NCBI GenBank assembly: GCA_000165345.1 | Contig: CM000431.1 | Location: forward strand, 608,001-672,000 | Direction of reading: 5' to 3' | Length of the DNA stretch: 64,000 bases | In this document: positions 4,637 through 57,400 of the stretch, one piece after another | How the letters are laid out: each line of letters opens with the position of its first letter | Position numbering within the stretch: position 1 is the first letter of the stretch | Program-made: the position numbers and the translations under genes | Notes under the pieces: generated by a model | Databases searched by the model: none | What the model was told of the DNA's origin: nothing | Seen by the model: the letters and a program-made list of their open reading frames with translations, nothing else

Positions 4637-6838
4637 TTATAGAAAAGTTAATGATAGTGCTAGTATTAAGGGTGATAGTAATCCTATCAGCAAATGTTTG
4701 AACATTGTTGATTTCAAGCACCTATCATCCCTAAATAAATGAAATAAATTTTCCGTAAAAATTTCATAAAAATTCTTCCCGTTGTAATTACACATATTTT
4801 TTTCTATTTTAATTTCCACCCAACTGATCCACTGCAAAATAGGGATACTTTTAATTATTTTATACTGTTTTGAAACCTGGTCAAAACCATCCAATGATAA
4901 CCTATTACAGAAATTATTTATCTCTGCTGAAAAATATTGTTTATTACGACAAAATATCTCGTTCCCTAAAACGGAGTTCCAAATAGATGCAGAATTTTTC
5001 GCTTTGCTAATATCGAAACCAAGATTATAAATAAAATGTTTTGAATTTAAAATATTTGCAATATCTATCAAAAAATATCTTGTCTTCATTGCTATTTTTG
5101 ATAAAATACATGCATAGTAGTCTCCTTTCTTTTTATAACAACAAAAATTTAATAAAATCACCAGGAAAATTGTCCAGATTATAAATTTTCGAAAAGCTGA
5201 AGAATCCATGATAAAAATAATAAATAGAATGATGGGAATAATAAAAACCAAAATGCTGAAATTTTTTGTTGAAAGAATAATTGAGAAGGCAATTAGAAAT
5301 ATTTTATTCATTATCTTAATAGAATTAATAATATCTTTGTATGCGCTACTATTCTTTTGAACATTAAATAGTTTAATGAATATATTAATGCTTGAAGTAA
5401 CAAAAAATGTGATGAAGAAGACCACAAAAGTTAATGCAATAAACAAGGGCCACAAGTTTGTATATTCGGATTCAGATAAATTGGAGCAATCAAATAAAGA
5501 ATTACCAATTTTATCAAATAAATGCACAACCAAGAGTATTATTGGAGCAGTTATTGAAATCAAACAAGCTATTAGAATAATTCCAATAAGTAGAATACTG
5601 CTTTCTTTTGATATTTGTGCTAATATTCCGATCGAAAATGATATTAACATCAGAATAATTGGGACTAAATAAATACCAAAGTTTAGTGTTGAAAAATATG
5701 ATGTAAAATAGTATTTGTTACTTGATTGATGCAATTCATCATGAAGGTTACTTTGAATCTTAACAATACCTTCTAAAAATTTATAAATCTCAAATTGTTG
5801 AATTGGAAATATTGAAATGAACTCGTTCGCATCATTGCTGTCCTTAAAATGATCCCAAATTTCATTATTCGCTATCGAAAATTCATCAACCAAAGAAAGT
5901 GTAAATGAATTGATATTATTTTGCAAAAATCGACTGTGAGGTTTATACGATCCTTTATTAAACGCTTGCCTGAAGCAATTATTTGGCAAATTAATGGTTT
6001 TTAAAAGCTTACCTTGCAATTGAATCCCAAAAATTCCTTGTAATTATAGATATAGGAGGATAGGTGAAGCTTGATTCAACTTCCCTAATAACAGAATTGG
6101 GGAAATCTTGATTAGTTTGTAGTCCATCCATAGATTCTACTAAAAGTTAGAAATTAACATACATGATTGAATCAACTTACCGATGTCAATAAAGACTCTT
6201 GTTGGAGTTAACGATAATATTTCAATACAAATTGCAGTTCGTATTCTACCATTGTATTTTAGCAGTCTTTGGTCAATTGCCAGATCCTTCAGAAATGAGT
6301 TAATTCCCATTGAATTTGGAATGTTCGAATCCGTAAAAAGTAGAATTATGTCTTTCGAAGTCCAGTAAATCTTTTCAAAATGTTTGGAAAGAGGAATAAT
6401 TAAGCCTGCTGCACTACCCAGTTCATCTTTTCCATCTTTATATTTCCATGGAAAGGAAATAGAAATTATTATTACTTCTGAAGAATCGCCTCTTTTTGAT
6501 GGAACTACAGCTGCAATATACCCGGAACTTAAGAGGTATAAATCTTTATATCTGTATGAAGAGAAGTTTTTATTTTTTATTATATCAATGTCTCCAGAAT
6601 CATCGCATTCAATGCAGTGAGTGTCCCTTGCGATAGAATTAATTATGCTTTGCGCAACCAATTCAGCGTTACCCGATTTTTGAGAAGTTAGTATCTCTTG
6701 GGTTACTTTCTTATATTCAAGTACGATGCTGCGGTCAACTGTAGCCTTATTTACTCCTTCAGAAAACCCACTTTCTTTTACTTGCGTAACTTTATCAAAG
6801 CCTGGAAGAGATAAAAGAAATAAAACCCCAATAAGCAA
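4637..6838 (-). CDS. GAA1: GPI-anchor transamidase component GAA1 (GPAA1). Three exons: complement(6181..6838, 6013..6139, 4637..5969).
   Basis: Two track ORFs (6140..6838 and 4637..6019) are joined by two micro-introns of 41 and 43 nt, with donors GTAAGT and GTAAGC and acceptors TTTTAG and TTCAG. Exon 1 has an N-terminal signal anchor and a luminal domain matching GPAA1 (KHFEKIYWTSKDIILLFTD vs [21 protein letters not shown]). The C-terminal half is multi-pass membrane. Reading phase is conserved across both junctions and the total is 706 codons. Confidence 0.6.
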
Positions 6839-7235
6839 CAGAGTTAATCTATAAAGATAAGAATGTAGTTGAATTTGAAAGCTTACGCACTTACCTGATT
6901 AATCCAACCGTAGTAAAGCTCATATCCAGCACAGTTGTAATTATTAAGGTATTTTACCCTTTGTATTTGTGCGCGCATGAGAAGCTTACAGTTTATACCT
7001 CGTAAAAATTGAAAGTAATGTGGAATTTAATTTATAATAAATGTAATATAGATTTTCACATAACACCAAAGAGACCATTTCTTTTTGGTTGCAACATATT
7101 TGCGATATTTTTGTCCGATTATACATAATTATTGTATTAATTTTTTTTTGAAATTTAGAATTTTAACACATCTTGCCCGCAAAACAATTATCTCTTTTAC
7201 CGCACAAGCAAATTGTCATTTTTGACGAATATTAA

Positions 7236-10154: not shown

Positions 10155-11342
10155 CTAAATTGTTTTATTTAAATATTTTTCCGATATAACAGAAATTGGA
10201 TCAATCTTAATTAAAGACTCAAATACTTCGAACGGTTCTGTCGGCTCATAAAATTCTAAACTTGATTTTTTCGAATCACTATTAAATATCAGAGACAATG
10301 CAGAAATTGAAAGAAATGTATGTAGCGGATCTGAATGACCTTTGTTGTCGGTATTAAAAGGAGATTTTTGAAAACCGCCATAAATATTGTTTTGATGGCA
10401 TAGAATTCCATTTATCAATATTTTTAATATTTTTGAGTTAATGATTGATGAACAGTCAATATTTCTATTAATAGTAATATTTTTCACGATCTTAAGACTT
10501 GCAAATACCCACCATGAGTAGCATACATCACATTTTTTCCCAATGCGTCCATTAAAGCAATACGATTGATACTTAGTATTTTCGTGACTTTCAGAAGCGA
10601 TTATTCTCTTTAATAGCCACCTGTTTAGTCTGTTAAAATTAAACAACAAATCAATTGAGTTATTTTTCGTTATTTCTTTGATTATTGCTATCGATGAAAC
10701 TGCGCAGAAAGTATATCCTGCATGGGACTCGTCTTTATAGCGTTTACCGAATCCACCATCTTTGTTTTGCATATTAACCAATAGCTTTGTTAGTTCTGAA
10801 ATTCTAAAGACTGAATCTTGTTTTAAATCAGGATAGTTCGATAAATAGTATACAAGTAGTGTTGAATAAATAAACCTGACGTCAAATTGTCTTAAGCAGT
10901 TTTTGGAGTTATTGATATATATTTTTTCACCTCTCAAGGCAATTAGGCTTTTTATAAAAGCAGTTAATTCATATTTGTTATCTTCAGTAATTTTATTGTT
11001 TAATATTGTCTTTATTTGTATCCCACTAAGTATAGAAAGAATGGAAGGTCTAACAAAATCAAATGGATTAAGAGAATAAAATTTTAACTTAAAGTTATCT
11101 ATAAGTAATTCACGTTCACATTTTTTTAATAAATGTAAAAACTTATTTCTAGCATTATGGAGTTGATCGCAAATATTAAATTGAATTAAATCTGAGCAGC
11201 ACAAAACCCAATAAATACCATGTATAAATACTGAACTCAGCTGGATTTTAGATGAATCATAGCTGTTTATTGCATCATTTGTTACAAAGATTAGATATTT
11301 TTTATGTAGTTCCAGGTCGAATTTTCGTGCTGCATTATACAT
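10155..11342 (-). CDS. Protein prenyltransferase beta subunit, most similar to Rab geranylgeranyltransferase beta.
   Basis: The 395-aa ORF carries prenyltransferase alpha-alpha toroid repeats: DGGFG, HAGYTFCAVSSIA, GRIGKKCDVCYSWWVFASL and GGFQKSPFNTDNKGHSDPLHTF (compare RABGGTB ...DVCYSWWVLASL...GGF...D.FHT). Confidence 0.75.
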   Translation of the reverse strand: MYNAARKFDLELHKKYLIFVTNDAINSYDSSKIQLSSVFIHGIYWVLCCSDLIQFNICDQLHNARNKFLHLLKKCERELLIDNFKLKFYSLNPFDFVRPSILSILSGIQIKTILNNKITEDNKYELTAFIKSLIALRGEKIYINNSKNCLRQFDVRFIYSTLLVYYLSNYPDLKQDSVFRISELTKLLVNMQNKDGGFGKRYKDESHAGYTFCAVSSIAIIKEITKNNSIDLLFNFNRLNRWLLKRIIASESHENTKYQSYCFNGRIGKKCDVCYSWWVFASLKIVKNITINRNIDCSSIINSKILKILINGILCHQNNIYGGFQKSPFNTDNKGHSDPLHTFLSISALSLIFNSDSKKSSLEFYEPTEPFEVFESLIKIDPISVISEKYLNKTI

Positions 11343-11409: not shown

Positions 11410-11912
11410 ATGAAAAAGACTCAAATATCAAACGGTAAGTAATTCAACTATCACTATATGTTATCATTCTGTCTCAGTTGCAAGTGGGATTTTGTCTAGA
11501 TCGGTTTTGAAAGGAGACCCTGTTTTTTCGCAAGAAGACTTGTCTAGCAGAAAAATAATTAAAAATGAAAGCAAAAAGCACAGTAAAAGAAACGTAAGTT
11601 ATCTTCATGATAAAAACTTCTAATAACTTATATAAATAGGCTAATGAAAATATTTTGAACACAATTTTTTTAAAACAAACCGCAAAGAATCAAAGGGAGA
11701 AGAGTTTGAAGCAGTTAGCGACGAAAGGAGTCGTAAAGTTCTTTAATATGATAGTAAACTATCAGGAAAATTCAAACATCAAAGCAAGTAAAGGCACTAG
11801 TAGTCCGAAAAATGCAGGACATTGCACAGAAACTAGGAAGGTAAAAAACGTGGAGTCCAACATTAAACCAAATAGATTCGGAACAATTGTTGGAATGCAT
11901 TCAGATAGGTAA
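11410..11912 (+). CDS. RRP15-like pre-rRNA processing protein. Three exons: 11410..11434, 11478..11593, 11640..11912.
   Basis: Missed by the ORF track. Introns are 43 and 46 nt, both with GTAAGT donors, and acceptors CTCAG and AATAG. The spliced product contains ...LKQLATKGVVKFFNMIVNYQ..., matching the conserved RRP15 core (LQRIATRGVVQLFNAVQKHQ). Exon 1 is only 25 nt (MKKTQISN). Confidence 0.45.
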
Positions 11913-17449: not shown

Positions 17450-18540
17450 CTAAATCTTTTTTTTTAGTGCTCTTTCTCGGATATATTTGGTCTGTGATAT
17501 TCTTATTTTATTCCAAATTGGTCGAGGGATCATATTTGCCTGAATACAAAGTATCAAAAAGTAGTTACACTCTTTATTTTACTTACTATTAATAGTTGTA
17601 TTCGATGACCAAAATAAGGAACAACCGTCGAGTAAACCGATGGAGTTTTTTTAAGCATCTTTATAGATTCAACAGAAAACCTAAGAAACCAATCAAGATG
17701 CTATAAAAATAATAGCTTACTACTTACCTTTTTGTTGAAATTGTGAACAAGGTTTCTCTTTTGGCTTTTGATAGTTTAGTGGTAACTAGTAAAGGAGTAT
17801 GGCATTGGATTGTGATATTCTCGGACTCACATTCCGCTCGTAAACTTCTACATAGAGATTCGGCGACACTTTTTGTAGCGGCATACGCGGAATAGAGAGG
17901 GTCAGTCTGAAGCTGTGACGACCCACTTCCTATACACAAAATGGCTCCCCGATCCCTAAGCATATGCATTATTTATTTAGTAAAGTTTGAAAGCACTACT
18001 CACCTCTTTTTCATGTAGCTGTAAACAATGCGAGTCATCATTAATACAGACCTAACATTCACTTCTATTAATTCATTAATTAGATCCAAACTAGTCTCTT
18101 CAAAATATTGTGCATACGGATATGAGATGCCAACATTATTTATTAGAATCCCAACATCATCAATTGAATTCAAATATCCGCAAAAATTTGAGTAACAAGT
18201 CGGGTCAGTAAAATCCATTAAATAATACCTTATTTCTTGATTTGAATCTGGTTTTTTCAAGGATAGCAACTAGGGCAAGAATTAGTATTTTTGAAGCATA
18301 TTTAAAGCTTACCTCATTTACAACATTTTGCAGCTTTTCTCTATTTCTTCCTATTAAAATTAAGTTTAAATCTTCTTTAAACAATTCCTTTGCCATTGCT
18401 TTTCCAATTCCGTCGCTTGCGCCAGTTATAATTGCCCAACTTCCAAATGAAGTAAGTTTTTTCTCAGGTCTGTTGAGCAAGAGAAATAATTTGTTTATGG
18501 CCATAGAAAGATAATTCATTATTAATTTAATAAAATTCAA
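17450..18540 (-). CDS. Very-long-chain 3-oxoacyl-CoA reductase (KAR/HSD17B12/IFA38 family SDR). Five exons: complement(18313..18540, 18004..18269, 17728..17955, 17587..17680, 17450..17539).
   Basis: Three track fragments lie in different frames. Four micro-introns of 43, 48, 47 and 47 nt rejoin them, with donors GTAAGC, GTGAGT, GTAAGT and GTAAGT. SDR motifs: TGASDGIGK, NNVG, and YSAYAATK (YxxxK). The C-terminus ...IPRPIWNKIRISQTKYIRERALKKKI matches the KAR tail (LPSWIYLKIVMNMNKSTRAHYLKKTKKN). Total 302 codons. Confidence 0.65.
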
Positions 18541-20557: not shown

Positions 20558-23186
20558 TCAATTTTTTTTTTTGCGAATAGGCCTTTTTTGATGCTCTTTG
20601 TGTTGTTTGGATAAATTGTCAAAGTCATTATACTCAAATAACTCTGATATCTCCTTGGGAATTTCATCAATATTAGCGTTATTTTTGGAATCGGGATCAG
20701 CCGTTTCTTTTATCGTGTTGTCTTCAAAATTGTCCACAATATCTACTCCTTTATCCAAACATTGAAACTTGTGACTGTGAAATTTTCTCTTTTCGCATGT
20801 AAAATAAGATTTTAAGTCATGATCAGCGGTTAAACCTGAATGTGTATTGGATGATAAAATGTTTGAACCATTTTTTCTGCAGTTATTTAAAGATTGAGTA
20901 GATTTAGATAATAATTTAAATGATTCGAGCATTCTAGAAAAAACTCTGCATTTCGAGCCTCTAGATGCCTTAAGGTTCAAATTACAAATTACAACAATAT
21001 AGTTCTCAAGTAAATATTTTAAAATTAACTGAATATTATTTCTGCATATAAAGTCAAGCATTTCAATTACCACGCTTTCCAATATTGAACCCTCTCCTCT
21101 ATTTCTTGGCACCTTTAATTGGTCCATTATTAAGAAAATGTACTTAAAAATATCATGTTTAGTGAATAGACGGTAATAAAAGTCGTCTCGAGTTCCCAGG
21201 CAAGTTCTCAAGAATTTAATAACTGAAATAGAAAAAATTTTATGAAATGGTCGAGTAGCGATACGTAGCAATTTTCTTGGCAATTGATTTTGAAGGATTT
21301 TGTATTTAATTCTGTAGTTGTGTTCTTGTACGCAAGTTGCGAGAATATCGCAAAATAATACTCTTGCAGAATACAATGGATTGAATTCAGTAAAAATTAA
21401 AGAGTCGTTGAGCAAGCTATCTATTAATCTGTCTAGAATGCCCATATCATAAAATAAAGAGAGTGAATCATCTCTTTCTGGAACATCCATAGTCTTAGGG
21501 TCCAATATTCGTTTAAAAATTGCACAAATTTGCATTTGGATGCTCTCACTCCTTGAATTAATAAAAATTTCGCATAGAGTTCCCCATAGTGAATGAAATA
21601 AGTTAGATTTGTCGGATAAATTTTCCATTTCTTTAATGCTTTCTTTTGGACTATTTTGAAGAGCATCATCAGCATATAAAATATCGACATTCGAGCCATA
21701 TATATTAGTTTCTTTATGAACTTTAAAATATTGAGAAGTTGATTCATGAATAGCGTGTCTCAAAAGACCAGGATTAATTTCGCAAACCATTGAATATATT
21801 TCAACTGCTAAATCAATTGGCCTTATATTAGAATAATTTATGAATGATAAATCATTAGTATTTGAAAAATTTTTATGATCATCATTTGAAGTGGATAATT
21901 CTAACATCTGCCTAGCTCCAATACAATTTTCATTTAAATATCCACAAAACTCACATAAAATATTGTTAACTTTAAGATTTATGAATATTTGATGTCGTTC
22001 ATAAATCGAAAGCATTGGGTTTTGTTTTAAAACCGTCAATACTGCATGAATAAATTTTGCAACAAGAAAGTTTTTCTGAATGTTTTCCTTGAGATATTTC
22101 CAAATATCGCTTGTAGTTACGATCATACTAATTATCGATGAAAAATTATTATTAATTATTGTTGCTATTCTTTGAAGGCTTTGCTCATCAAGATGCCTAG
22201 GCATAACAACATCTCTTAAATACATTAACCTATAGTTAAGATGAATTGTTCGAACTTCTGGTAAAGGAACAACACTGTGAAATTTAACATTTTCTAAAAA
22301 CTTCTTGTGAGAAAATTTTATTTTATAATTTTCCAATGTCTCGTCATATTCGCAAGCTTTAAAAAATTTTAAATAATATTCATCGCTTAATAAGATTTCA
22401 AATACTTCATTGAAGCTACTGTAGAAAACTATTATTCTACGAAGTACTTGGAATATTTTATGTAGCCCAATCAAATCAGAATTTTGTTCAAATTCTTCCA
22501 TTAGATTAAAAAGTGAATCAAAAAATTCTCTACTTAATAGATCCATAACAATATTTTCAGAATTAATATTGGAATCAAGTTCTAGATCATCAATTATTTG
22601 ATCTATATTACTTGAAGTTGGCCTCTCTAATAGTGAATAGCCCGTACTTTCTTCTGGTAATTCTGCTTCTAATAGGTCAACGCACAGATGCGGAACTAAA
22701 GAAGTGATCATGTTCCATATTGAATTACAACTTTCTGAATGCTGGAAACTTAATGCCCTGTATAGATCTGAATTTAGTCCATCCTGCCAAGTAATAATAC
22801 TTTCTTTTTGATGGCAATACTCTCGATTCAAGTCAATAGGAGTGTTTACTAATTTAACTATATTATAGTTTTCTATTTCTAGTAAATCCTCAATATTTTT
22901 TCTTTGTGAGTGCAGTTCTTTCTCAAAATTTGGATCTTCGTCACTTAAGACCTAAAAAAGTAAATAAAAAAACGGTTATTTATATTAAGCTTACCAAAAT
23001 ATTAAACTTATCATTATCCTTGTTTAATTTTAAAAAGCCAGTTCCGCAGTCAATCCAGTTACCATTTTCAGGATTTACTTCGTAAAGTTTAACCCTACGG
23101 TATTCCAATGGCCATGCATTAAAACAATAAACTTTATGCTCTGGGATTGAAATGTTTTTTATAGACTCCAGCTCTGAAAAAGCCAT
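20558..23186 (-). CDS. Serine/threonine-protein phosphatase 4 regulatory subunit 3 (PP4R3/SMEK/Psy2). Two exons: complement(22995..23186, 20558..22951).
   Basis: Exon 1 encodes the EVH1/RanBD-like start ...YRRVKLYEVNPENGNWIDCGTGFL (compare [22 protein letters not shown]). A 43-nt intron (GTAAGC...TTTTTAG) joins it in frame to the 798-codon exon 2 (...ESIITWQDGLNSDLYRALSFQ vs DTLIVWSEAENYDLALSFQ). The rest is armadillo-like. Confidence 0.65.
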
Positions 23187-27277: not shown

Positions 27278-28640
27278 ATGAGTGTAAATAAAAATATTTT
27301 ATTCCCATGTATGAAAAAGGCGGAATGCAACATCTTTTGTCCAAATGAAGTTTTGAGAGAAAATATTAACTCTTATGGATCTATAGAAATTATGGATAAA
27401 ATATCAATTTTTCACATTCCTAGTCCACAAAATAACCAAAAGCCAAAAAAAATATTCGTTACTAGAAAAGAATGCTGTAAACTACTTGATATTTCAATAG
27501 ATGAATATTTATTCATTAATCAAAATTTGTGTGGATTGAAACCAATAATTAAATGCACTGGAAAGATCATTATTAAAATGTCCGTTACAAGTGTTATCAT
27601 TGCATGCAAAGATGTTTGGATTCTTAATCCGGAAAATAGCAAAACATTAGAGATCATTGAAAGGCTATTAGAGTGCACAGGATATAATATTTCGGTAGAC
27701 AACAACACTCCCAGTACAAAAGTTTCATTTGCAGATGGTATCAGCAAAGAATTCATTTCTCCTTTGGTAGAAAATTATAATTATAATTCTAGTTTAGAAT
27801 GTACTCGCAATAATTTTGAAGAAACAGAACATGCACTTTCGAGCTCAATATTAAGTACATTTACTGATATAAATACTTTGGATAATTCACATGAGTATAA
27901 AAGACAGGAATCAATCGAATGCTCTATTTCAAGTGCTACCCAAGAAAAGAATATTGATATCTACAATTACAGGTTTATTCCCACAATCAACAAAGATTAT
28001 TACTCTCATTCATTTGCTGCTGTATGCATAGAGATAGGATTAGAAGTACTAAATAAAGAATTAATTGAAAGTATTAATTGCACAAAAAATGAAGTACTAA
28101 AAAGTTGTAATATATTAATAAAGAGCAGTAAATGGTACAAATACCCTTGGAGATTTACCTTTAGTGACTTTACAAATAAAAAAATGATATCTAAGTCAGT
28201 AAACGTAAGTTTTTTCTCGTAGATTAACAATATATTGATTCCATATTTAGACGTTAGAAATTACCACTTCTATATTAATAGATTGCTTAAAGGAAATTTT
28301 GGAAGAGATTAAACAAATTAGACAAAAAGATGGAGACGAATTAGTTATTTGTATTGAAGAATGGGAAGACATTTTACACCGTTACATCCCAGCAATATAC
28401 TTGGCATCCAAAGAATTAACAGAAGTCAAATCCTCAATTACATTCAGTGACGAATTGTCAAAGGTATATCTCGACTTCCAGAGAAACGAATACATGTACA
28501 CAAACTTAAAGATCTCGCTACTTACATTATCGTGTAGCATCACCTCAGTAATTACAGGTAAGAGTGATTTTGCAAATATTAATAAAAAGTTAATTAGCCT
28601 CACAAGGAATATTCGGAATGAATCTTCTCAGTGGAATTGA
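27278..28640 (+). CDS. Hypothetical protein. Two exons: 27278..28204, 28251..28640.
   Basis: Track ORFs 27278..28222 and 28299..28640 are joined by a 46-nt intron (GTAAGT...ATTTAG), phase 0. The first ORF's apparent stop lies inside the intron. I recognise no family. Confidence 0.4.
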
Positions 28641-28890
28641 ACACGACCCTATAGCTTGGTACGTCGTCACATTCTTAGTTGTCACCCCAATAATATTATG
28701 GGGAGTGAGTTGTTGGTTTACAGGAGCGATGTGTAAACGCGAAATAAACTACATAAGCCACAACCAAAAGGGAAGATAAAAAAAAAAATTAGAATACACT
28801 AGAATAATAGTGCTTGGGTGAATATCAAACTATTTGTGGTCATTCAATATTAATACAGACTCCCACAAAAATACTACGGTAGAATAGATT

Positions 28891-29683: not shown

Positions 29684-31213
29684 ATGGATCAAGAATTAGG
29701 GTTATCAAGTGGTACAAATACACATCATATTGAGCTATCAATTTATTTAGGATCCATAAGTGTTACAATTAGTGATGATAATCAAGTTAATTGTAGGTTT
29801 TTCTCACTTACAGTTGATATTGAACCATCATTTAATTTAGAAAACAGTTTACAGGAAATTAATACACAAACACAGAACATTTTTGATTATAATGATTCAG
29901 AGATAGATGATTGTGAGAAAACTCAGTTTTGTACTAGTTGGTATGAAATAACAGATGCTCCATTACATGCAACCTATGGTATATTTTCTAGTGAAATTAA
30001 TGGCATTATTAAAGAGTGCAATATAAACCAAGATATATATTTAAATCTGAAGTTGCCTATATGGGTTTCAAATATGGCAAAACAATTTTATAATGCATAC
30101 AACCAAATTGGCTTTGAAAACTTTCTATTAACAGTTCTTCAGTTAAGAATCACAATCTGGGCTACAAAAAATTCAACTATTGAATCAGCTGAAATATTTG
30201 AAGTTGGTGAAACAATTATCAAAGTTTCTGAGGATCACATATTATCAAAAAATTCATTTTATTTTATACATAGAATTCCTGAGCATGACGCTTTTGCTAT
30301 TAAGGAATATTCTGGAAACGACAAAGAATACACAATTGGTATTCTTAAATGTTTTTTTAACTCCAGGCCCGTAATAATAAAAAACATTAATAATAATTTA
30401 ATAGATATTTGTAAAAATAACGCAACACCTTGCGATTTTTCAAAAGAAAATTTTGAATTAATTCAGAAATTGCGAATTAGTCAAGAAAATGTTCGAATGC
30501 AGCTTCATGATATTGTTCCTTTGAAATGGGAATATTTAGATGATAATAATGTAATCAGAGGGCCATATAATAGCATTGTTATGATGAGTTGGATAGTAAA
30601 AGGGTACTTTGGAGAAAATAGCAAATTACGTTTATTTGATTTTGGTCAAGAGTGCAAAATTGAAAGTACTACTCCAAGATGTTTACAAAAGTTTCAACCT
30701 TTGAGCAATTACCTATCTTTGATTAAATCAGATGTGTCTAGAATATTTAGATGCTCACCTAATGATTTAATAAACATTGGCTTAATAGTTAAAGAGCCTA
30801 ATCATGAAAACATGAATTTACATACTGTGGAAATGACTAATAAATCAAGTGCACGAGAAGAAAATGCAAGATTTATTCACAAATCCCAGGAAAGCAAAAG
30901 AATTGAAATTGAAAACGCAGTAAATATGCTGAAAACCCAATTTTCACATATTGAAAAAGAATTTCAAAATAAGTTTAGAAGAAAAGTGCAAAATAAAAGT
31001 ATGGATAACAATTTTTCCTTGGAAGCAACAAATATAAGTAAGGACGAGTTTATAAAATTTGCAACAAAAAATGTATTTAGACAAAAAAATAATGCTTTAT
31101 TCAAAAAATGGTGCGCAGAATATGGGCCTGAATTAGTGTTAGAAGCATGCGCAATTAGGATTCAAACCGCATTTCGCAAATACATTAAAAGAAGATATTT
31201 AAATGTAAAATGA
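29684..31213 (+). CDS. Hypothetical protein with a C-terminal IQ calmodulin-binding motif.
   Basis: 509-aa ORF with the IQ motif AIRIQTAFRKYIKRRYL near the C-terminus. No other recognisable domain. Confidence 0.4.
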   Translation: MDQELGLSSGTNTHHIELSIYLGSISVTISDDNQVNCRFFSLTVDIEPSFNLENSLQEINTQTQNIFDYNDSEIDDCEKTQFCTSWYEITDAPLHATYGIFSSEINGIIKECNINQDIYLNLKLPIWVSNMAKQFYNAYNQIGFENFLLTVLQLRITIWATKNSTIESAEIFEVGETIIKVSEDHILSKNSFYFIHRIPEHDAFAIKEYSGNDKEYTIGILKCFFNSRPVIIKNINNNLIDICKNNATPCDFSKENFELIQKLRISQENVRMQLHDIVPLKWEYLDDNNVIRGPYNSIVMMSWIVKGYFGENSKLRLFDFGQECKIESTTPRCLQKFQPLSNYLSLIKSDVSRIFRCSPNDLINIGLIVKEPNHENMNLHTVEMTNKSSAREENARFIHKSQESKRIEIENAVNMLKTQFSHIEKEFQNKFRRKVQNKSMDNNFSLEATNISKDEFIKFATKNVFRQKNNALFKKWCAEYGPELVLEACAIRIQTAFRKYIKRRYLNVK

Positions 31214-31237
31214 GAATTACATCATATATTTAAAAAA

Positions 31238-32435
31238 TTGTGCCTAATAATGAATACTATTCGACCGAATTATGGATTTATCAACTCAAGCTTTTCAAAG
31301 ACATGTATACAAAGCGTATTTAGAACAAGTAGGGGGATATGTAAAATGAACTTTAAACACTATATTAAGTTGTATAGAATTAACAACCCCACGGGATTTT
31401 GGCTTCTCTTTATTCCTACTTTTGGGAGCTTGACCCTTGCATCTAACTCATTGCTACCAAAAGCGAACATTACCGCATTGTTTGCACTTGGGTCAGTAGC
31501 TTCTAGGAGCGCAGGATGCGTAATAAATGATTTGGCAGATCGCCAATTTGATTCAAAGGTTGTTTTCCATACTTTCTTTATTCATTATCATCTGCTTTCA
31601 GGTTGAGAGAACAAAGAATAGACCGCTTGCTAACGGAGAAATGGCTTTTACCAAAGGTAAATTACACAAGTTTGGTTTTACTATTTTCATTCTAGTTTAG
31701 CGCTAATTGCTCTCATTGGGTCTTCTACAACTTCAGCGATTGTTTTGTCTAGACTTAACAGATACACAATTTATTTAGGTATTCCTTCTGTATTCTTAAT
31801 AGCAGCATACCCTTTTATGAAAAGGATAACGCATTACCCCCAGCTATTTCTAGGTTTTACATTTAATTGGGGCGTATTGCTTGCTTGGACCTCTATATAT
31901 GGTTGTATTAACCCATATCGGAGCTCGTGGTTATGTCCGATTTCATATTACCTTTCTTCTGTTTGTTGGAGCGTACATTATGATACAATCTATGCGCATC
32001 AAGATAGGTTATTTGACAAACAAATTGGATTGTTCTCGACTGCATTAAAATGGTGAGTATTTTTACCTCAATTATTCTTTATATCTCCCTTAGGAATGAA
32101 GCTACAGGAAGTCGTTTGTTTATCAATGCAATAGTTTCTGGAATATTTGCGTCATCTGCAGGCATATTTGCAAATTTAGGAGTAAGTTTCAATTACTTTG
32201 TAAAGAATGTTAATCCAAAAAGCTGGAATACCAGTTCTCTGTACTTTTATATACAGCTCATTTAATTTACCAAAGTAAAGCTACAAATTTCTTTTCCGAA
32301 CAAGATTGCAGGAAACAATTTATTATGAGTAAATATTCTGGAGTAGTGCTACTTTTAGGAATAATATTTTCTAAATATAAAGCAAGTAAAAAGCATTCCA
32401 ATAAGAGGGACTCAAATACTTTGCACAAAGGCTGA
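31238..32435 (+). CDS. COQ2: 4-hydroxybenzoate polyprenyltransferase (COQ2, UbiA family). Five exons: 31238..31558, 31602..31656, 31701..32052, 32094..32181, 32223..32435.
   Basis: Three track fragments plus two unlisted exons are joined by introns of 43, 44, 41 and 41 nt, with donors GTTGTT (non-consensus), GTAAAT, GTGAGT and GTAAGT. The spliced product aligns residue-for-residue with COQ2: NDLADRQFDSKVERTKNRPLANGE (NDxxDxxxD motif), YPFMKRITHYPQLFLGFTFNWG and YDTIYAHQDR. The C-terminus is HLIYQSKATNFFSEQDCRKQF (compare [21 protein letters not shown]). The start codon is uncertain. Confidence 0.65.
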
Positions 32436-32636
32436 TAAACTATGAACGAATTACAAATAAATTTCAGCAAAATGCTATTCCAATAGTTTGTTTTGAAAAA
32501 TTTTTTTCTCTAAACATTTTCTATACGAATGCCCACGTCTACAGAGAGAATTAAAAAAAAAAATACAAGCCAGGATTGGGGTAAGTTACTTTCCGATTAA
32601 TAATAAAATATTTTACTTTATAAAGAACCTGGTTCA

Positions 32637-33281
32637 ATGACGCTAACAAACAATGTACCAGTTGTTGATAATTGGGAGGATTTGTTAAATAGTGATAATG
32701 AGGATTCCTTTAATAACAACTCAGAATTCCAGACAAATTCGAATAATATTACTTCAACTTCAATTTCGAACAAGTGTTTTAATGACTATGAGGAACAGAG
32801 AAGATGCCAAGAGCTCGTTGAAGAGATGGATGGAAATGTAATGGACGATTTGTTTGACGGATTTGTAAGCCAACGCAAATCCACAAGTAAACTTCCCGGA
32901 AATAATTCTACTCATGCAATTTCGAATTTAAGCAACCAACAAGATGCGTTTAGTAATTTGAACTTGAACTCATATGGGAAAGTTGAAACTACTGCGTTTA
33001 AAATTGCAGAATGTATCAAGCCAGCTTTGGCTAAAAGTCCAGCCTGGCTCCGATTTATTGATATTTGCCTAAATGAGATTTTTCAAAAACTAGATTTAAA
33101 AGATCTGAAGACCTTAAAGAAAAAAGTTGACTTACAACTGTCAATTAGAGAAAAGGAGGAAAGAGAGAAGTCTCAGCAAAAGAAGAAGCCCAACGATTTT
33201 AGCACTCTTTCCAAAAACTTTAGGGAGGAACTCGACATATTTGATGGAATAGACTCCCTCGATGAGTCTGATGATTATTAG
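32637..33281 (+). CDS. Translation initiation factor eIF3 subunit J-like (eIF3j/HCR1).
   Basis: The 214-aa acidic protein has an N-terminal DNWEDLL...DNED stretch, the central LDLKDLKTLKKKVDLQLSIREKEEREKSQQKKK (compare eIF3j SLEIDDLKKITNSLTVLCSEKQKQEKQSKAKKKKK) and an acidic aromatic C-terminus, DIFDGIDSLDESDDY. Confidence 0.5.
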   Translation: MTLTNNVPVVDNWEDLLNSDNEDSFNNNSEFQTNSNNITSTSISNKCFNDYEEQRRCQELVEEMDGNVMDDLFDGFVSQRKSTSKLPGNNSTHAISNLSNQQDAFSNLNLNSYGKVETTAFKIAECIKPALAKSPAWLRFIDICLNEIFQKLDLKDLKTLKKKVDLQLSIREKEEREKSQQKKKPNDFSTLSKNFREELDIFDGIDSLDESDDY

Positions 33282-33382
33282 TTTCAAAAAGTTATAGTCT
33301 AAAAACTTTAGTGTTTTAATTTGTTATTATAATTGCCTTCGAAATCCCCTCATGTTTTTTAGTTGCCGCAAGCTGTTAATAT

Positions 33383-34816
33383 TTGATCAAAATGAGTCAA
33401 GATTTAATTTGTCGAAAAATAGCTCATCTAAAGGTTGATGCTGAAGCATCTATAAGAAATAGCTCTTCAAGAATTGAACGGATACTAAATGACGGCCTTC
33501 CGATATTCTCAGATGAAGTAGGTAGTTTTTCATCGAATGCAGAGAAGTTTTATATTTCAACGTCTAATAGAGAAATGGAAAATACAACGATAGGTGCGAA
33601 GAATTACTTAAATAATGCAAAGTGGGACTTAGTTAATAAGTACTATATTAATGTCTTGAAGAACCTAGACAGCCTAACGAATATCATTTTTTGCATACAA
33701 AAAAACTATTTTGACAACATACAATATATTAATATCTCGCAATCATATAACATGGCCTCAAGTATTGATAACATAACCACAAGGTCGCTTCGAATTAATG
33801 AGGCATCAAAAGGTGAATTGCTCATTTCATTATATAGAAGGTTATATATACTAAGACCTTTTATTGAAAAAATCAATAATGAAATTCTGAGGATACCAGA
33901 TCATATTATTACTCACAAATGTGCCCTTAGTACATTGAATGAACTATTACCTATTTGGAAAATTAGTATAAATTCCCAGGCCAAAAATGAATCTCAGTGT
34001 CTCTATAATCGTGAAAATAAATTGTCAAGTGTAATATGCCTGCAACTACCTCTTGAAAATGTTTTCTTCAAACAAGGAAGTTTTGTATCAAGGCCAATGG
34101 CACAAATAGATAATAATTGCTTGTTCAACGATGTACTTGTCACACTAACTTTCAGCAAGAATAAATTTAATCCTTACGGCGGAAAATATAACCTTCGTGC
34201 TTCTTTAAAACTCCCAGAATTTACTTCTTATTTGATCAACAATAATTATCAACTTTATGTTAAAACTAAACCAAGTGATTCAGAATCTAAAAACGTAACT
34301 TCCAGTACTCTTCCTCAAGTTGACTTCCCATCTTGCATAAAAAGCGCACTTGCAAAACAGATACATTCAACTCTTCATAGAGTTCACTGGGCATTAATTG
34401 ATAGGCTAATTTTCCATACCATTGTTCAACAAGTTGTCAATGCCCAAAAGGATTCTCCAGAAGCTATTTATATTAATGAACTAAGTAGTGAACGCGTTAT
34501 ATTTTCTATCAATGAAGCAAATCCATCAATTAGTTCGCATGATAATTCGAGTCTCGAAGTAAAAAATATATCTGTAAGTTATAAACCCATTAGCGTTGAA
34601 AATTTCTTTTTAAGTAATGATGAGCTGAATGCACTGAAATTACTTAGAGAGTCATTTTTAGAAATTTGGAGAAATTCCATTAAATTAAGTACAGATAATT
34701 TATTAGAAAACCAAATGTGTGTCATTAAATTAAGTAAATATTCTAATAAATTACTTGAAAGGTGGATTCATAAACTCGCAAAAAAATGCATAAACATTAG
34801 CGCAACATCTCTCTAA
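33383..34816 (+). CDS. Hypothetical protein.
   Basis: 477-aa ORF. I recognise no family. Confidence 0.35.
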   Translation: MIKMSQDLICRKIAHLKVDAEASIRNSSSRIERILNDGLPIFSDEVGSFSSNAEKFYISTSNREMENTTIGAKNYLNNAKWDLVNKYYINVLKNLDSLTNIIFCIQKNYFDNIQYINISQSYNMASSIDNITTRSLRINEASKGELLISLYRRLYILRPFIEKINNEILRIPDHIITHKCALSTLNELLPIWKISINSQAKNESQCLYNRENKLSSVICLQLPLENVFFKQGSFVSRPMAQIDNNCLFNDVLVTLTFSKNKFNPYGGKYNLRASLKLPEFTSYLINNNYQLYVKTKPSDSESKNVTSSTLPQVDFPSCIKSALAKQIHSTLHRVHWALIDRLIFHTIVQQVVNAQKDSPEAIYINELSSERVIFSINEANPSISSHDNSSLEVKNISVSYKPISVENFFLSNDELNALKLLRESFLEIWRNSIKLSTDNLLENQMCVIKLSKYSNKLLERWIHKLAKKCINISATSL

Positions 34817-38048: not shown

Positions 38049-38338
38049 TTTTTCTTCTGCCGTTATTTCAACACGCGCAAGTATCCCTTAAAAAAAAAAA
38101 AAATCAAATCATCAAGTATAAAAATTAATATTTTTTACAATTTAGAATAGAAAGTTCTCAACAAATACGTGATGAATTATAAATCAATAGATAGATCAAT
38201 TAAAAGACTATATTGGGAAATGCTAAATATCGCCAAATTATCTTTGGCTAGGCAATACTATTATTTCGAAATGTAGCCACTTTAATTAATTACGTCATAA
38301 ATAACTATACCTTTCTAAACTGATGGTTATGGAGACGC

Positions 38339-38411
38339 GGCCTCGTCGTCTAATGGATATGACGTTGGTCTTCGGAACCAAAGGTTGTGGGTTCGAGTCC
38401 CATCGGGGTCG
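38339..38411 (+). tRNA. tRNA-Arg, anticodon UCG.
   Basis: GGCCTCGTCGTCTAATGGATATGACGTTGGTCTTCGGAACCAAAGGTTGTGGGTTCGAGTCCCATCGGGGTCG folds as a 73-nt cloverleaf. It has a 7-bp acceptor stem with two G-U pairs, a D-loop with GG, a 5-bp anticodon stem (TTGGT/ACCAA) and the anticodon loop CTTCGGA, giving anticodon TCG. The T-arm is GTGGG-TTCGAGT-CCCAT. There is no intron. Confidence 0.85.
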
Positions 38412-38436
38412 TTTATTCCGTTTTTAAATTTATTGT

Positions 38437-43401: not shown

Positions 43402-44231
43402 ATGTTTTTCAATAATCACAAAGAAAAGATATCATCTGAATTGGTAAGTTACTGCCTATCAAATTTGGGTTATTGTAATTTCTGTAGCTTAAGAATATAG
43501 GGAAGGATGGCATTTCTATTGAACTAACAAATATTGAACCATACATTATTAAAGATTTGATGCAATCATTCATTTACACTGAGGGTAAGTCGGACAACTA
43601 GATATAACGAATAAAATAAATTGATGTAGATATTAATACCACCAAACAACGAAATTCCAATTTTCCGAAGTTTCAGTTTAGTTTTTCTAAGGGTGACAAT
43701 TTTAATAGTCAATTATACGGCGGCTGTCCGAGCTGTGGTAATTCGTATGACTTCTTGTTTTTATTAGATGCTTTTGAGAACGAGTACACATCATCGTCTC
43801 ACAATTTGATTGAAAACCATTATTTGAGATGCAAAATATGTAATTACCGATTTTTGAAATTACACAATCATAATTCTTCAGATTCTACAATTAATACTAA
43901 TAGTAATTCTTTTGAGAAGAAGCGCATTTATATAACAGGTATTAGAAAATCGTTATGTTTTGGAACTAACAATAAGTGGTGGGCAAAGTCTATTAGCGTT
44001 GGGAAAAGAATAGAAAAAGAGTCAGATAATAAGTCAGGGAAATCCAATAGTGTTATTAGGGTTCTTGATGCTATGCATAAAAAGAAGGCTCCTAAAATCC
44101 AGGAAATTTGTCCTGAATGCTCACATAACGAGGCATTCTTTACTCAATTCCAGGCTAGATCTGCAGATGAGGGTACTACAGTCATGTATGAATGTTGTAA
44201 ATGCCAGCATCGTAGGGTTATTAATAATTAA
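43402..44231 (+). CDS. RNA polymerase small subunit with a C-terminal TFIIS-type zinc ribbon (RPC11/RPA12/RPB9 family) and an N-terminal extension. Three exons: 43402..43443, 43488..43584, 43630..44231.
   Basis: The track ORF (43755..44231) ends ...CPECSHNEAFFTQFQARSADEGTTVMYECCKCQHR, a TFIIS-type ribbon closest to RPC11. Upstream in the same frame sits the first ribbon, GGCPSCG...CKICNY. That frame has no ATG before an in-frame TAA. Two canonical micro-introns of 44 and 45 nt (both GTAAGT...TAG) connect it to the ATG at 43402. An optional in-frame 30-nt intron at 43738..43767 is ambiguous. Confidence 0.5.
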
Positions 44232-54448: not shown

Positions 54449-57400
54449 ATGTCCACAGCATTGGAGTTGAACTCTCCATTTAGCAGTAAAGAGTTAAAAA
54501 GAGTATTTAGTATCGAATTTGGCGTCCTTTCACCCGAACTAATACGTAAGTATTCCGTACTCGAGATTAAAGTATCAGATATTTATGAAAATGGAAGACC
54601 TAAATCAGGTGGGCTTAACGACCCATTGTTGGGCACAACAGACTATCATATTCTTTGCGAAACTTGTCATATGGATATAAAAACATGTCCTGGCCACTTT
54701 GCGCATATTGAGCTTGGAAAGCCCATGTTTCATATCGGATTTATTACTACAGTACTTAAGCTTCTCAGATGCGTGTGCTATGCATGCTCTAAGTTATTCG
54801 TTGATACATTAGATCCCAAGTTTAAACAAATAAAACGCATTAAGAATCCAAGACTTAGATTGAAGAAAATTCTAGAAATGAGAAGCTCTTCATCCAGATG
54901 TATAATTTCTAGTGATGGTTCTGGATGCGGGTTTGTCCAACCAACCTATTCGAAAGAAGGATATAATTTGTATATTAATCAAAATCAAGATGAAAACAGA
55001 ATTATTGACGATGAAAGTGTTGATTCGAAGAGGTTGCTAGCCGCAGAAGAGGTACTTACAATTTTTAAAAGGATATCTCACGATGACATGAAGATTCTTG
55101 GATTTGATCCTGTAAAATGTAATCCTTCTTGGTTTATTAATACGGTAATACCGATTCCTCCTCCAGCTGTTAGACCATACGTTCAATTCGGAAGCGATCG
55201 GAGCGAAGATGATTTGACTTTAAAACTACAACAAATAATCAAGTTGAATGAAAATCTTAAAAAACAGATTCGTATTGGGTCTCCTGAACATATTATTAGT
55301 GAAATGTCAACTGTACTTCAATATCATTTAATTACACTTATTAATAACGACTTACCTGGTTTGCCTCAATCTAGAACAAGGAGTAACAGGCCAATCAAAT
55401 CTCTCAGAGCACGTCTAAAAGGCAAGGATGGTCGCATACGCGGTAACTTAATGGGTAAAAGGGTAGATTTCTCTGCAAGAACAGTAATAACAGGCGATCC
55501 TAACTTAGCTGTCGACCAAGTTGGAGTTCCATATTCTATTGCTATGACACTTACTTATCCTGAAGTTGTTACACCATATAATATAGAAGAGCTAAAGGAG
55601 TTGGTGCAAAGAGGACCGCATGAATGGCCAGGAGCAACTAGTATTATTCAGGAGGACGGAACAAAGGTTGACCTAAGGTTTTCAAATACCTCAAATAATT
55701 CGAATAATATTCTTCAATATGGATGGAAGGTTGAAAGGCATATGAAGAATGATGATCTAGTGCTCTTCAACAGGCAGCCTAGTCTACATAAGATGAGTAT
55801 TATGGGTCATCGTGTAAAAATTTTACCTTATTCTACATTTAGACTTAATCTTTCGGTAACTTCGCCATATAATGCAGACTTTGATGGAGATGAAATGAAC
55901 CTTCACCTGGCGCAATCGCATGAGACCCGATCTGAAATCAAAAACTTGATGATGGTTCCGAGACAAATAGTTTCTCCTCAAGGTAACAAACCCGTAATAG
56001 GCATAGTTCAGGATTCATTACTTGGAATTTTTCTTCTAACGAGAAAATCAACCTTTTTAACTAGAGATAAATTTTTACAGCTCTTATTATGTATTCCTTA
56101 TTGGAACGGAAACATCCCTCCTCCTGCAATACTTAGGCCTCAGCCTTTATGGACTGGGAAACAGATTATTACAGTGCTACTTGCATTTACAACAGACTTG
56201 GGTGAGCCAATTGAATTGAATTTAATGCGAGATGGTAGTATTGTATCGATTAAGCAATCTAATAACTCTTCTAATACAGATAAAGATGATTCTAAAGAAG
56301 CTATAGTTAACAATCCTTGGATATCAGAGCTGGATAATCAAGTAATAATCCAGAAGGGAGAGCATATTTGCGGAGTACTCACAAAAAAAATTGCAGGGTC
56401 TTCTTCAGGTTCACTAATTCACATTTTATGGAATGAAATTGGCCCAGAAAAAACTGGATTGTTTTTGACGTATACTCAGATGGTAGTTAATACATGGCTT
56501 CTTGAGCACGGCTTCACTGTAGGATGTCAGGACATTCAACCACAAAATTATACCTTGGAAAAAATAATGAACTCTTTAGAAGGCTCAAAGTTACAAGTTC
56601 AACAAATTATCAGGCGCGCTCAGAAAGGTAAACTTGATTGTCAGCCAGGTAAGAGCCTAATTGAATCTTTTGAGGCTCAAGTTAATCAGGAATTGAATAG
56701 TGCGCGTGAGTTGTCTGGTACGATTGCAACTGAGAACCTCGATTCTTCTAAAAACAATATTGTTGCAATGGTCCAATGTGGAAGCAAAGGGTCAACTATA
56801 AATATTTCACAGATTATGGCATGCGTTGGGCAGCAAAATGTCGAAGGTAAACGTATTCCATTTGGGTTTAGGGATAGAAGCTTGCCACATTTTTTGAAAT
56901 ATGATTATGGGCCTGAAAGTCGTGGTTTTGTTTCGAACTCATATCTTTCAGGTCTTACACCCCAGGAAGTTTTTTTTCATGCTATGGGAGGCAGAGAAGG
57001 AATCATTGATACTGCTTGTAAAACTTCAGAAACAGGGTATATACAAAGAAGGCTAATAAAGGCAATGGAAGATTGTATGGTACAGTATGATAGAACTGTT
57101 AGGAATAGTAATGGCGACATTATTCAATTTCTTTATGGAGAAGATGGAATGGCAGGAGAGTTTATTGAGGACCAAGTTATCGAACTACTACAGATGGAGG
57201 CAGCAGTGTTCCAGCACAAGTATCGTCACAATCTTGAACATCCGAGATGGGGTTCTAGCTGGGCTGGTGTCCAACCTTCCTTGATAAAAAATCTACAATT
57301 TGATCTAGAATCTCAGAATATACTGAACTCCGAGTATAAACAACTTGTAACAGACCGCGAGCAGCTTGGGAAAGACATTTTCCCAGATGGTGAAACAAGA

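Follow-up and report, generated by a model that had tools for sequence, protein, structure and literature searches.

The window analysed here, a stretch of 64,000 nucleotides from chromosome 3 of Cryptosporidium parvum, very probably carries at positions 31250-32435 (+) the COQ2/UbiA orthologue of this species, interrupted by four GT-AG introns, the first of which begins with the donor AAG/GTTGTT (the slash marks the exon-intron boundary throughout). The gene, its exon structure, and the ubiquinone synthesis and alternative oxidase of C. parvum are already known from the annotation or the literature, and the conserved weak donor is of minor interest. It nevertheless illustrates well how a strongly non-consensus 5' splice site is tolerated in an intron-poor genome whose donors are otherwise rigid. 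A preliminary description made from the sequence alone had guessed at a Cryptosporidium-like source; the DNA is indeed from C. parvum chromosome 3, and the public gene is identical. A ciliate-type genetic code (nearby genes end in TGA) was considered and dropped, the database matches being to Cryptosporidium.

Translation of the three forward frames between 30700 and 33000 revealed five coding segments that do not share a single frame; the four intervals between them are short and T-rich, with GT at one end and AG at the other. Once joined, the segments form one open frame of 338 codons, from the ATG at 31250 to the TGA at 32433-32435. The parts of the gene are as follows.

31250..31558 (+): exon 1, residues 1-103, with the N-terminal extension and the first two predicted membrane helices (from translation and a 14-sequence alignment)
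31526-31552 (+): first Asp-rich motif, N93-D94-x-x-D97-x-x-x-D101, in exon 1 (14-sequence alignment)
31559..31601 (+): intron 1, 43 nt, phase 0, AAG/GTTGTT, T-rich body, acceptor TTTCAG
31602..31656 (+): exon 2, 55 nt, V104-E-R106-T107-K-N-R110-P111-L..., the VxRTxxRP continuation of motif 1
31657..31700 (+): intron 2, 44 nt, phase 1, donor GTAAAT, acceptor TTTAG
31701..32052 (+): exon 3, 352 nt, central membrane helices and second Asp-rich motif
31979-32017 (+): second Asp-rich motif, Y215-DTIYAHQD223-RLF-D227, in exon 3 (alignment of 14 homologues)
32053..32093 (+): intron 3, 41 nt, phase 2, donor GTGAGT, acceptor CCTTAG
32094..32181 (+): exon 4, 88 nt, from GT-AG enumeration
32182..32222 (+): intron 4, 41 nt, phase 0, donor GTAAGT, acceptor AAAAAG
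32223..32435 (+): exon 5 with the TGA stop at 32433-32435, ending as the public gene span does

As expected of U2-type GT-AG introns, removal of the four elements leaves one open frame and a conserved protein, and their position and phase are common to the orthologues. Read-through of intron 1 meets a stop after 15 codons. The acceptor of intron 2 at 31700 keeps the segment LIALIGSSTTS, which has aligned counterparts in C. canis, C. andersoni and Dictyostelium, and the acceptor of intron 4 at 32222 keeps LEYQ, as C. canis does. The preliminary description had called four very short introns, and the lengths of 43, 44, 41 and 41 nt bear this out; of the span it gave, 31238-32435, the end is exact, and the start falls 12 nt before the ATG at 31250, on a TTG in the same frame.

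Comparison with public records supports the model in full. Spliced at the GTTGTT donor, the product is identical at 338 of 338 residues to QOY42597.1 of C. parvum IOWA-ATCC (locus CPATCC_001246), which was found in the 90% cluster of the top protein match, and also to WRK31482.1. The NCBI record is named "UbiA prenyltransferase family", and the UniRef entry "4-hydroxybenzoate polyprenyltransferase, mitochondrial". At the DNA level, the interval 640794-644979 of CP044420.1, chromosome 3 of IOWA-ATCC, is 100% identical to window positions 29750-33935 over 4186 nt, and the public gene span corresponds to exactly 31250-32435. Exhaustive enumeration gave 1238 sets of GT-AG introns within this span that leave a 338-aa open reading frame, and only one of them reproduces the public protein. 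The introns of the IOWA-ATCC annotation have been described as 100% supported by RNA-seq, a general statement made for the annotation that bears indirectly on whether intron 1 is removed from the transcript (PMC8744675). Over a longer stretch of 21 kb (window about 21250-42435), CP044420.1 is not fully identical: in the part upstream of about 23.2 kb the coordinates are offset by 1 nt, so there must be at least one indel, and the window may come from a C. parvum assembly or isolate other than IOWA-ATCC.

The donor of intron 1 departs from the consensus at several positions, as it lacks the +5 G, the purine at +3 and the A at +4; donor 2, GTAAAT, likewise has no +5 G. The preliminary description had noted the non-consensus character of the first donor and the missing +5 G, which agrees with the reading AAG/GTTGTT at 31559, and had left the boundary ambiguous between GTTGTT and GTTTTC. 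This ambiguity is real, with two in-frame GTs in tandem, and is settled in favour of GTTGTT at 31559 by the public protein and the alignment. Main use of the downstream GT at 31562 (GTT/GTTTTC) would yield a 339-aa product with an additional valine after K103. Either GT preserves the frame and yields an open product, the GTTGTT tandem is kept in four species, and an alternative donor 3 nt away is physically possible; the additional valine would, however, fall within D101-x-x-V104-x-R106-T107 (the D101-S-K-V-E-R-T stretch), and the stretch from D101 to R106 is free of insertions in all 14 aligned COQ2/UbiA proteins. The public protein also lacks this valine, and since only one of the 1238 intron sets reproduces that protein, the donor is placed at 31559. 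The flanks point the same way: 31559 is preceded by the exonic AG and has a U at +6, whereas 31562 fits the donor consensus at the GT only. We thus consider it very improbable that 31562 is the main donor, and a minor +3 isoform may occur.

Other boundaries for intron 1 were examined and rejected. Shifts by +1 to +4, which would give the same mRNA, leave GT-AG ends only at 31559-31601. The acceptor AG at 31606-31607 would remove V104-E105 and break the invariant VxRT spacing. A U12-type intron does not fit either, as the donor GTTGTTTTCC departs from the consensus RTATCCTT.

With the donor at 31559 as the preferred reading, the older annotations deserve attention, as those of C. parvum Iowa II (XP_001388113) and of C. 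hominis TU502 and UdeA01 (XP_667504, CUV05137) contain only a 118-aa fragment, consisting of exon 1 and the read-through of intron 1 (window 31250-31606). Taken at face value, these read-through frames imply that intron 1 is poorly removed and that a truncated 118-aa product dominates in a decaying or non-functional gene; the very weak donor and the complete loss of the pathway in several other Cryptosporidium species (PMC8767354) would be in line with this. Such a product would nonetheless be missing motif 2 entirely and half of motif 1, the exons downstream are open and conserved in five species, the catalytic residues are all invariant, and the spliced model is the one found in the evidence-based IOWA-ATCC annotation, so that truncation as the dominant outcome is judged extremely unlikely. 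A regulatory role for the weak tandem donor could also be imagined, in which splicing is deliberately inefficient and retention of intron 1 (118 aa) or use of the +3 donor tunes COQ2 dosage across life-cycle stages; we regard this idea as speculative and improbable.

To place the donor in its local context, the other introns of the window were rebuilt under the GT-AG rule from public gene spans and product lengths, with a unique solution for five genes and an ambiguous one for the 468-aa gene (four possible intron solutions). The following genes contain 1-3 introns each.

4637-6923 (-): Gaa1
11410-11912 (+): Rrp15p
17724-18519 (-): short-chain dehydrogenase
20558-23186 (-): PP4R3
27278-28779 (+): 468-aa hypothetical protein
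43402-44231 (+): TFIIS-type protein

The 12 introns recovered in this way are 43-49 nt long, and with local introns of about 40-50 nt the short COQ2 introns represent the local norm rather than a feature of this gene. Their donors are GTAAGT (seven), GTAAGC (three), GTGAGT (one) and GTAAGA (one), all conforming to GTRAG. GTTGTT was counted as the only non-GTRAG donor among the 16 annotated introns of the window; COQ2 donor 2, GTAAAT, also lacks the +5 G. This tally agrees with the published figure, according to which 84% of C. parvum introns begin with GTAAGT, obtained from 213 introns of an old annotation (2008) with a median length of 61 nt (PMC2483917). When the literature was searched for a recent tabulation of donor hexamers across a Cryptosporidium genome, only that 2008 figure was found. 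COQ2 is the most intron-rich gene of the window. About 11% of C. parvum genes have introns, and intron-containing genes have 2-10 exons with a mean of 2.6 (PMC4637869); a five-exon gene is in the upper tail of this distribution and is not exceptional.

To follow the introns across the genus, the C. parvum locus was compared with its orthologues in C. tyzzeri, C. canis, C. andersoni and C. hominis. Synteny is retained in all loci compared, the gene being preceded by a GYF-domain gene and followed by eIF3j, and the four introns occupy the same positions, in the same phases, in all five species. The intestinal species (n=4) have introns of 41-44 nt, and those of the gastric C. andersoni measure 64-71 nt; all C. 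andersoni COQ2 introns are about 50-70% longer than their intestinal counterparts (locus L003, 3001-4319). Intron 1 starts with AAG/GTTGTTT in the four intestinal species and with AAG/GTAATA in C. andersoni; it is 43 nt long in C. hominis, C. tyzzeri and C. canis and 64 nt long at the same site in C. andersoni. Identity between C. canis and C. parvum is 70.6% in exons and 56.8% in introns, and C. canis keeps the GTTGTTT start despite this intron divergence. From this, GTTGTT seems to have been acquired in the intestinal lineage, either at its base or later within it, and to have been retained since. In C. hominis, splicing leaves an intact product of 338 aa, identical at 331 of 338 residues.

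The public C. tyzzeri model TRY52428 (321 aa; locus L001, 3001-4183) uses later acceptors for introns 2 and 4, which removes 17 residues. The deleted segments, LIALIGPSATS and LEYQ, are kept in C. canis, C. andersoni and Dictyostelium, and the model is probably a mis-annotation with two wrong acceptors, as judged from these alignments. The same later acceptors were tried for the C. parvum gene and rejected, as they remove residues kept in those three species. Pathway reconstructions that start from proteomes holding the 118-aa fragment or the C. tyzzeri model could miss or mis-score COQ2.

The identity of the product as COQ2/UbiA, proposed in the preliminary description, was borne out by profile searches together with the full-length public match. 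Pfam UbiA (PF01040) scored 156.6 bits against a cutoff of 34.2 (E = 9.2e-46), aligning residues 53-303 with positions 1-245 of the 250 in the profile, and the equivalog model TIGR01474 (ubiA_proteo) scored 279.8 bits, above its cutoff of 275.45 by a narrow margin. The gene call is far beyond chance. A search of 5.8 billion proteins gave the best matches in C. tyzzeri (93% identity), C. canis (68%) and C. andersoni (53%), followed by animal, amoebozoan and alphaproteobacterial COQ2/UbiA at 35-43% identity; orthologues were found in this protein search only in the parvum group, C. canis and gastric species.

In a 14-sequence alignment, residues N93, D94, D97, D101, V104, R106, T107, R110, P111, Y215-D-T-I-Y-A-H-Q-D223 and D227 are invariant, so that both Asp-rich motifs of the family are intact. 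Conservation of the UbiA motifs had been set beforehand as a test of the identification, and in this alignment the motif residues are fully conserved. The first motif, NDxxDxxxD, binds Mg2+ and diphosphate; it is present here and also aligns to the structure 4od4. The second, DxxxD, is represented by D223 and D227 with RLF between them, instead of the usual KxD.

AlphaFold (AF2) modeling from the 14-sequence alignment produced an all-helical structure (pLDDT 86.5, pTM 0.83), and the hydropathy profile has 8 peaks. Foldseek matched the model with probability 1.00 to 4od5 (TM 0.81, target-normalised), 4od4, 4tq3, 6m31, 7bpu and 8djk, with UBIAD1 among the matches; the only sequence match in the PDB was 4od4, Aeropyrum UbiA (E = 7e-11). 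The product has a predicted UbiA-like multi-pass membrane fold. At the N-terminus, residues 1-32 have pLDDT below 50, and residues 1-47 contain 8 K/R and no D/E; from its composition, this basic, acid-free extension is a plausible organelle-targeting sequence.

The fold and the Asp-rich motifs are common to all members of the UbiA superfamily, and archaeal lipid synthases are among the best Foldseek matches, which raises the question of whether the enzyme uses another substrate, as heme O synthase (COX10) and the menaquinone prenyltransferases (MenA/UBIAD1-type) do. The profile scores argue against this: TIGR01474 lies above its cutoff, whereas the sister models fall far below theirs (cyoE/ctaB 55.7 bits against 210, MqnP models 63-73 against 375-430), and the MqnP/MenA-type and other UbiA-type models are likewise far under their cutoffs. 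The nearest named homologues are, moreover, all COQ2/UbiA, and the COQ2-specific block YDTIYAHQD is identical. We therefore give almost no credence to another substrate and retain the assignment to COQ2.

The preliminary description had also inferred a quinone-using membrane system in a reduced mitochondrion. For C. parvum this is established, and AOX, MQO and NDH2 have been reported there together with the full pathway (PMC5146892, PMC12691609, PMC8767354). The complete set of enzymes for ubiquinone synthesis, along with polyprenyl synthases, alternative oxidase, malate:quinone oxidoreductase and NDH2, is reported for both C. parvum and C. hominis (PMC5146892, PMC12691609, PMC6282951), and the pathway has been lost entirely in several other members of the genus (PMC8767354). 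No other gene of the ubiquinone pathway or for a quinone oxidoreductase was found among the large open reading frames of the 64-kb window.

By homology and from the literature, we hypothesize that the enzyme resides in the inner membrane of the mitosome, where predicted COQ2 would transfer the polyprenyl chain from polyprenyl diphosphate to 4-hydroxybenzoate. This reaction would be the committed membrane step of ubiquinone synthesis, and the resulting ubiquinone would supply the alternative oxidase and malate:quinone oxidoreductase system kept by the intestinal C. parvum. At the RNA level, intron 1 would be removed through the weak donor AAG/GUUGUU, with U1 pairing in the normal register, mainly to the exonic AG and the GU; such a weak donor would be tolerated, and it is conserved in the four intestinal-species sequences compared.

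Several further features of the window were recorded. Upstream of the annotated eIF3j ATG at 32637 lies a 45-nt intron-like element, from GTAAGT (32581) to AAAG (32625), whose removal joins an ATG at 32529 in frame in C. parvum. An A-run at about 32553-32563 is not of equal length in C. parvum, C. tyzzeri and C. hominis, and thus the reading frame upstream of eIF3j is not conserved; C. canis reads ATGAGCTGGG/GTAAGT at the site of the element, which may be a 5'-UTR intron. The only prenyl-related neighbour of COQ2 is a gene resembling the beta subunit of protein prenyltransferases (10158-11342, -; PF00432, E = 3e-45), another consumer of prenyl diphosphate that stands outside the ubiquinone pathway. 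The largest subunit of RNA polymerase II is encoded at 54449-60133 (+), with Rpb1 domains 1-7, and its C-terminal heptad array corresponds to a 21-nt tandem repeat of 18.7 copies (59474-59906); the strong negative GC skew at 58-60 kb is due to this repeat. An Rfam scan of the window yielded one tRNA and no snRNA, and a tRNA-Arg gene (anticodon TCG) is located at 38338-38412 (+), between a 140-aa open reading frame and a Myb-domain gene.

Among known systems, the closest is CPATCC_001246 itself, which is the same gene with the same DNA, span and product, and shows no difference from the model rebuilt here. The archaeal UbiA structures of Aeropyrum pernix (4od4/4od5) and Archaeoglobus fulgidus (4tq3) are alike in fold and their Asp-rich motifs align; sequence identity to them is only 15-23%, and the archaeal enzymes are not proven ubiquinone enzymes. 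Eukaryotic COQ2, such as the 4-hydroxybenzoate nonaprenyltransferase of Dictyostelium and the animal enzymes, and proteobacterial UbiA share 35-43% identity with the C. parvum protein over about 85% of its length, with NDxxDxxxDxxVxRTxxRP and YDTIYAHQDxxxD invariant and a similar helical membrane architecture. Relative to these enzymes, the Cryptosporidium protein has a shorter N-terminal extension and a 5-residue loop insertion in the NPYRS region (residues about 192-198, window about 31910-31930). The second motif also differs from the usual DKxDD, reading D(R/K)L(F/Y)D in Cryptosporidium and DRLFD in C. parvum (residues 223-227, window 32003-32017), with the first and last Asp kept.
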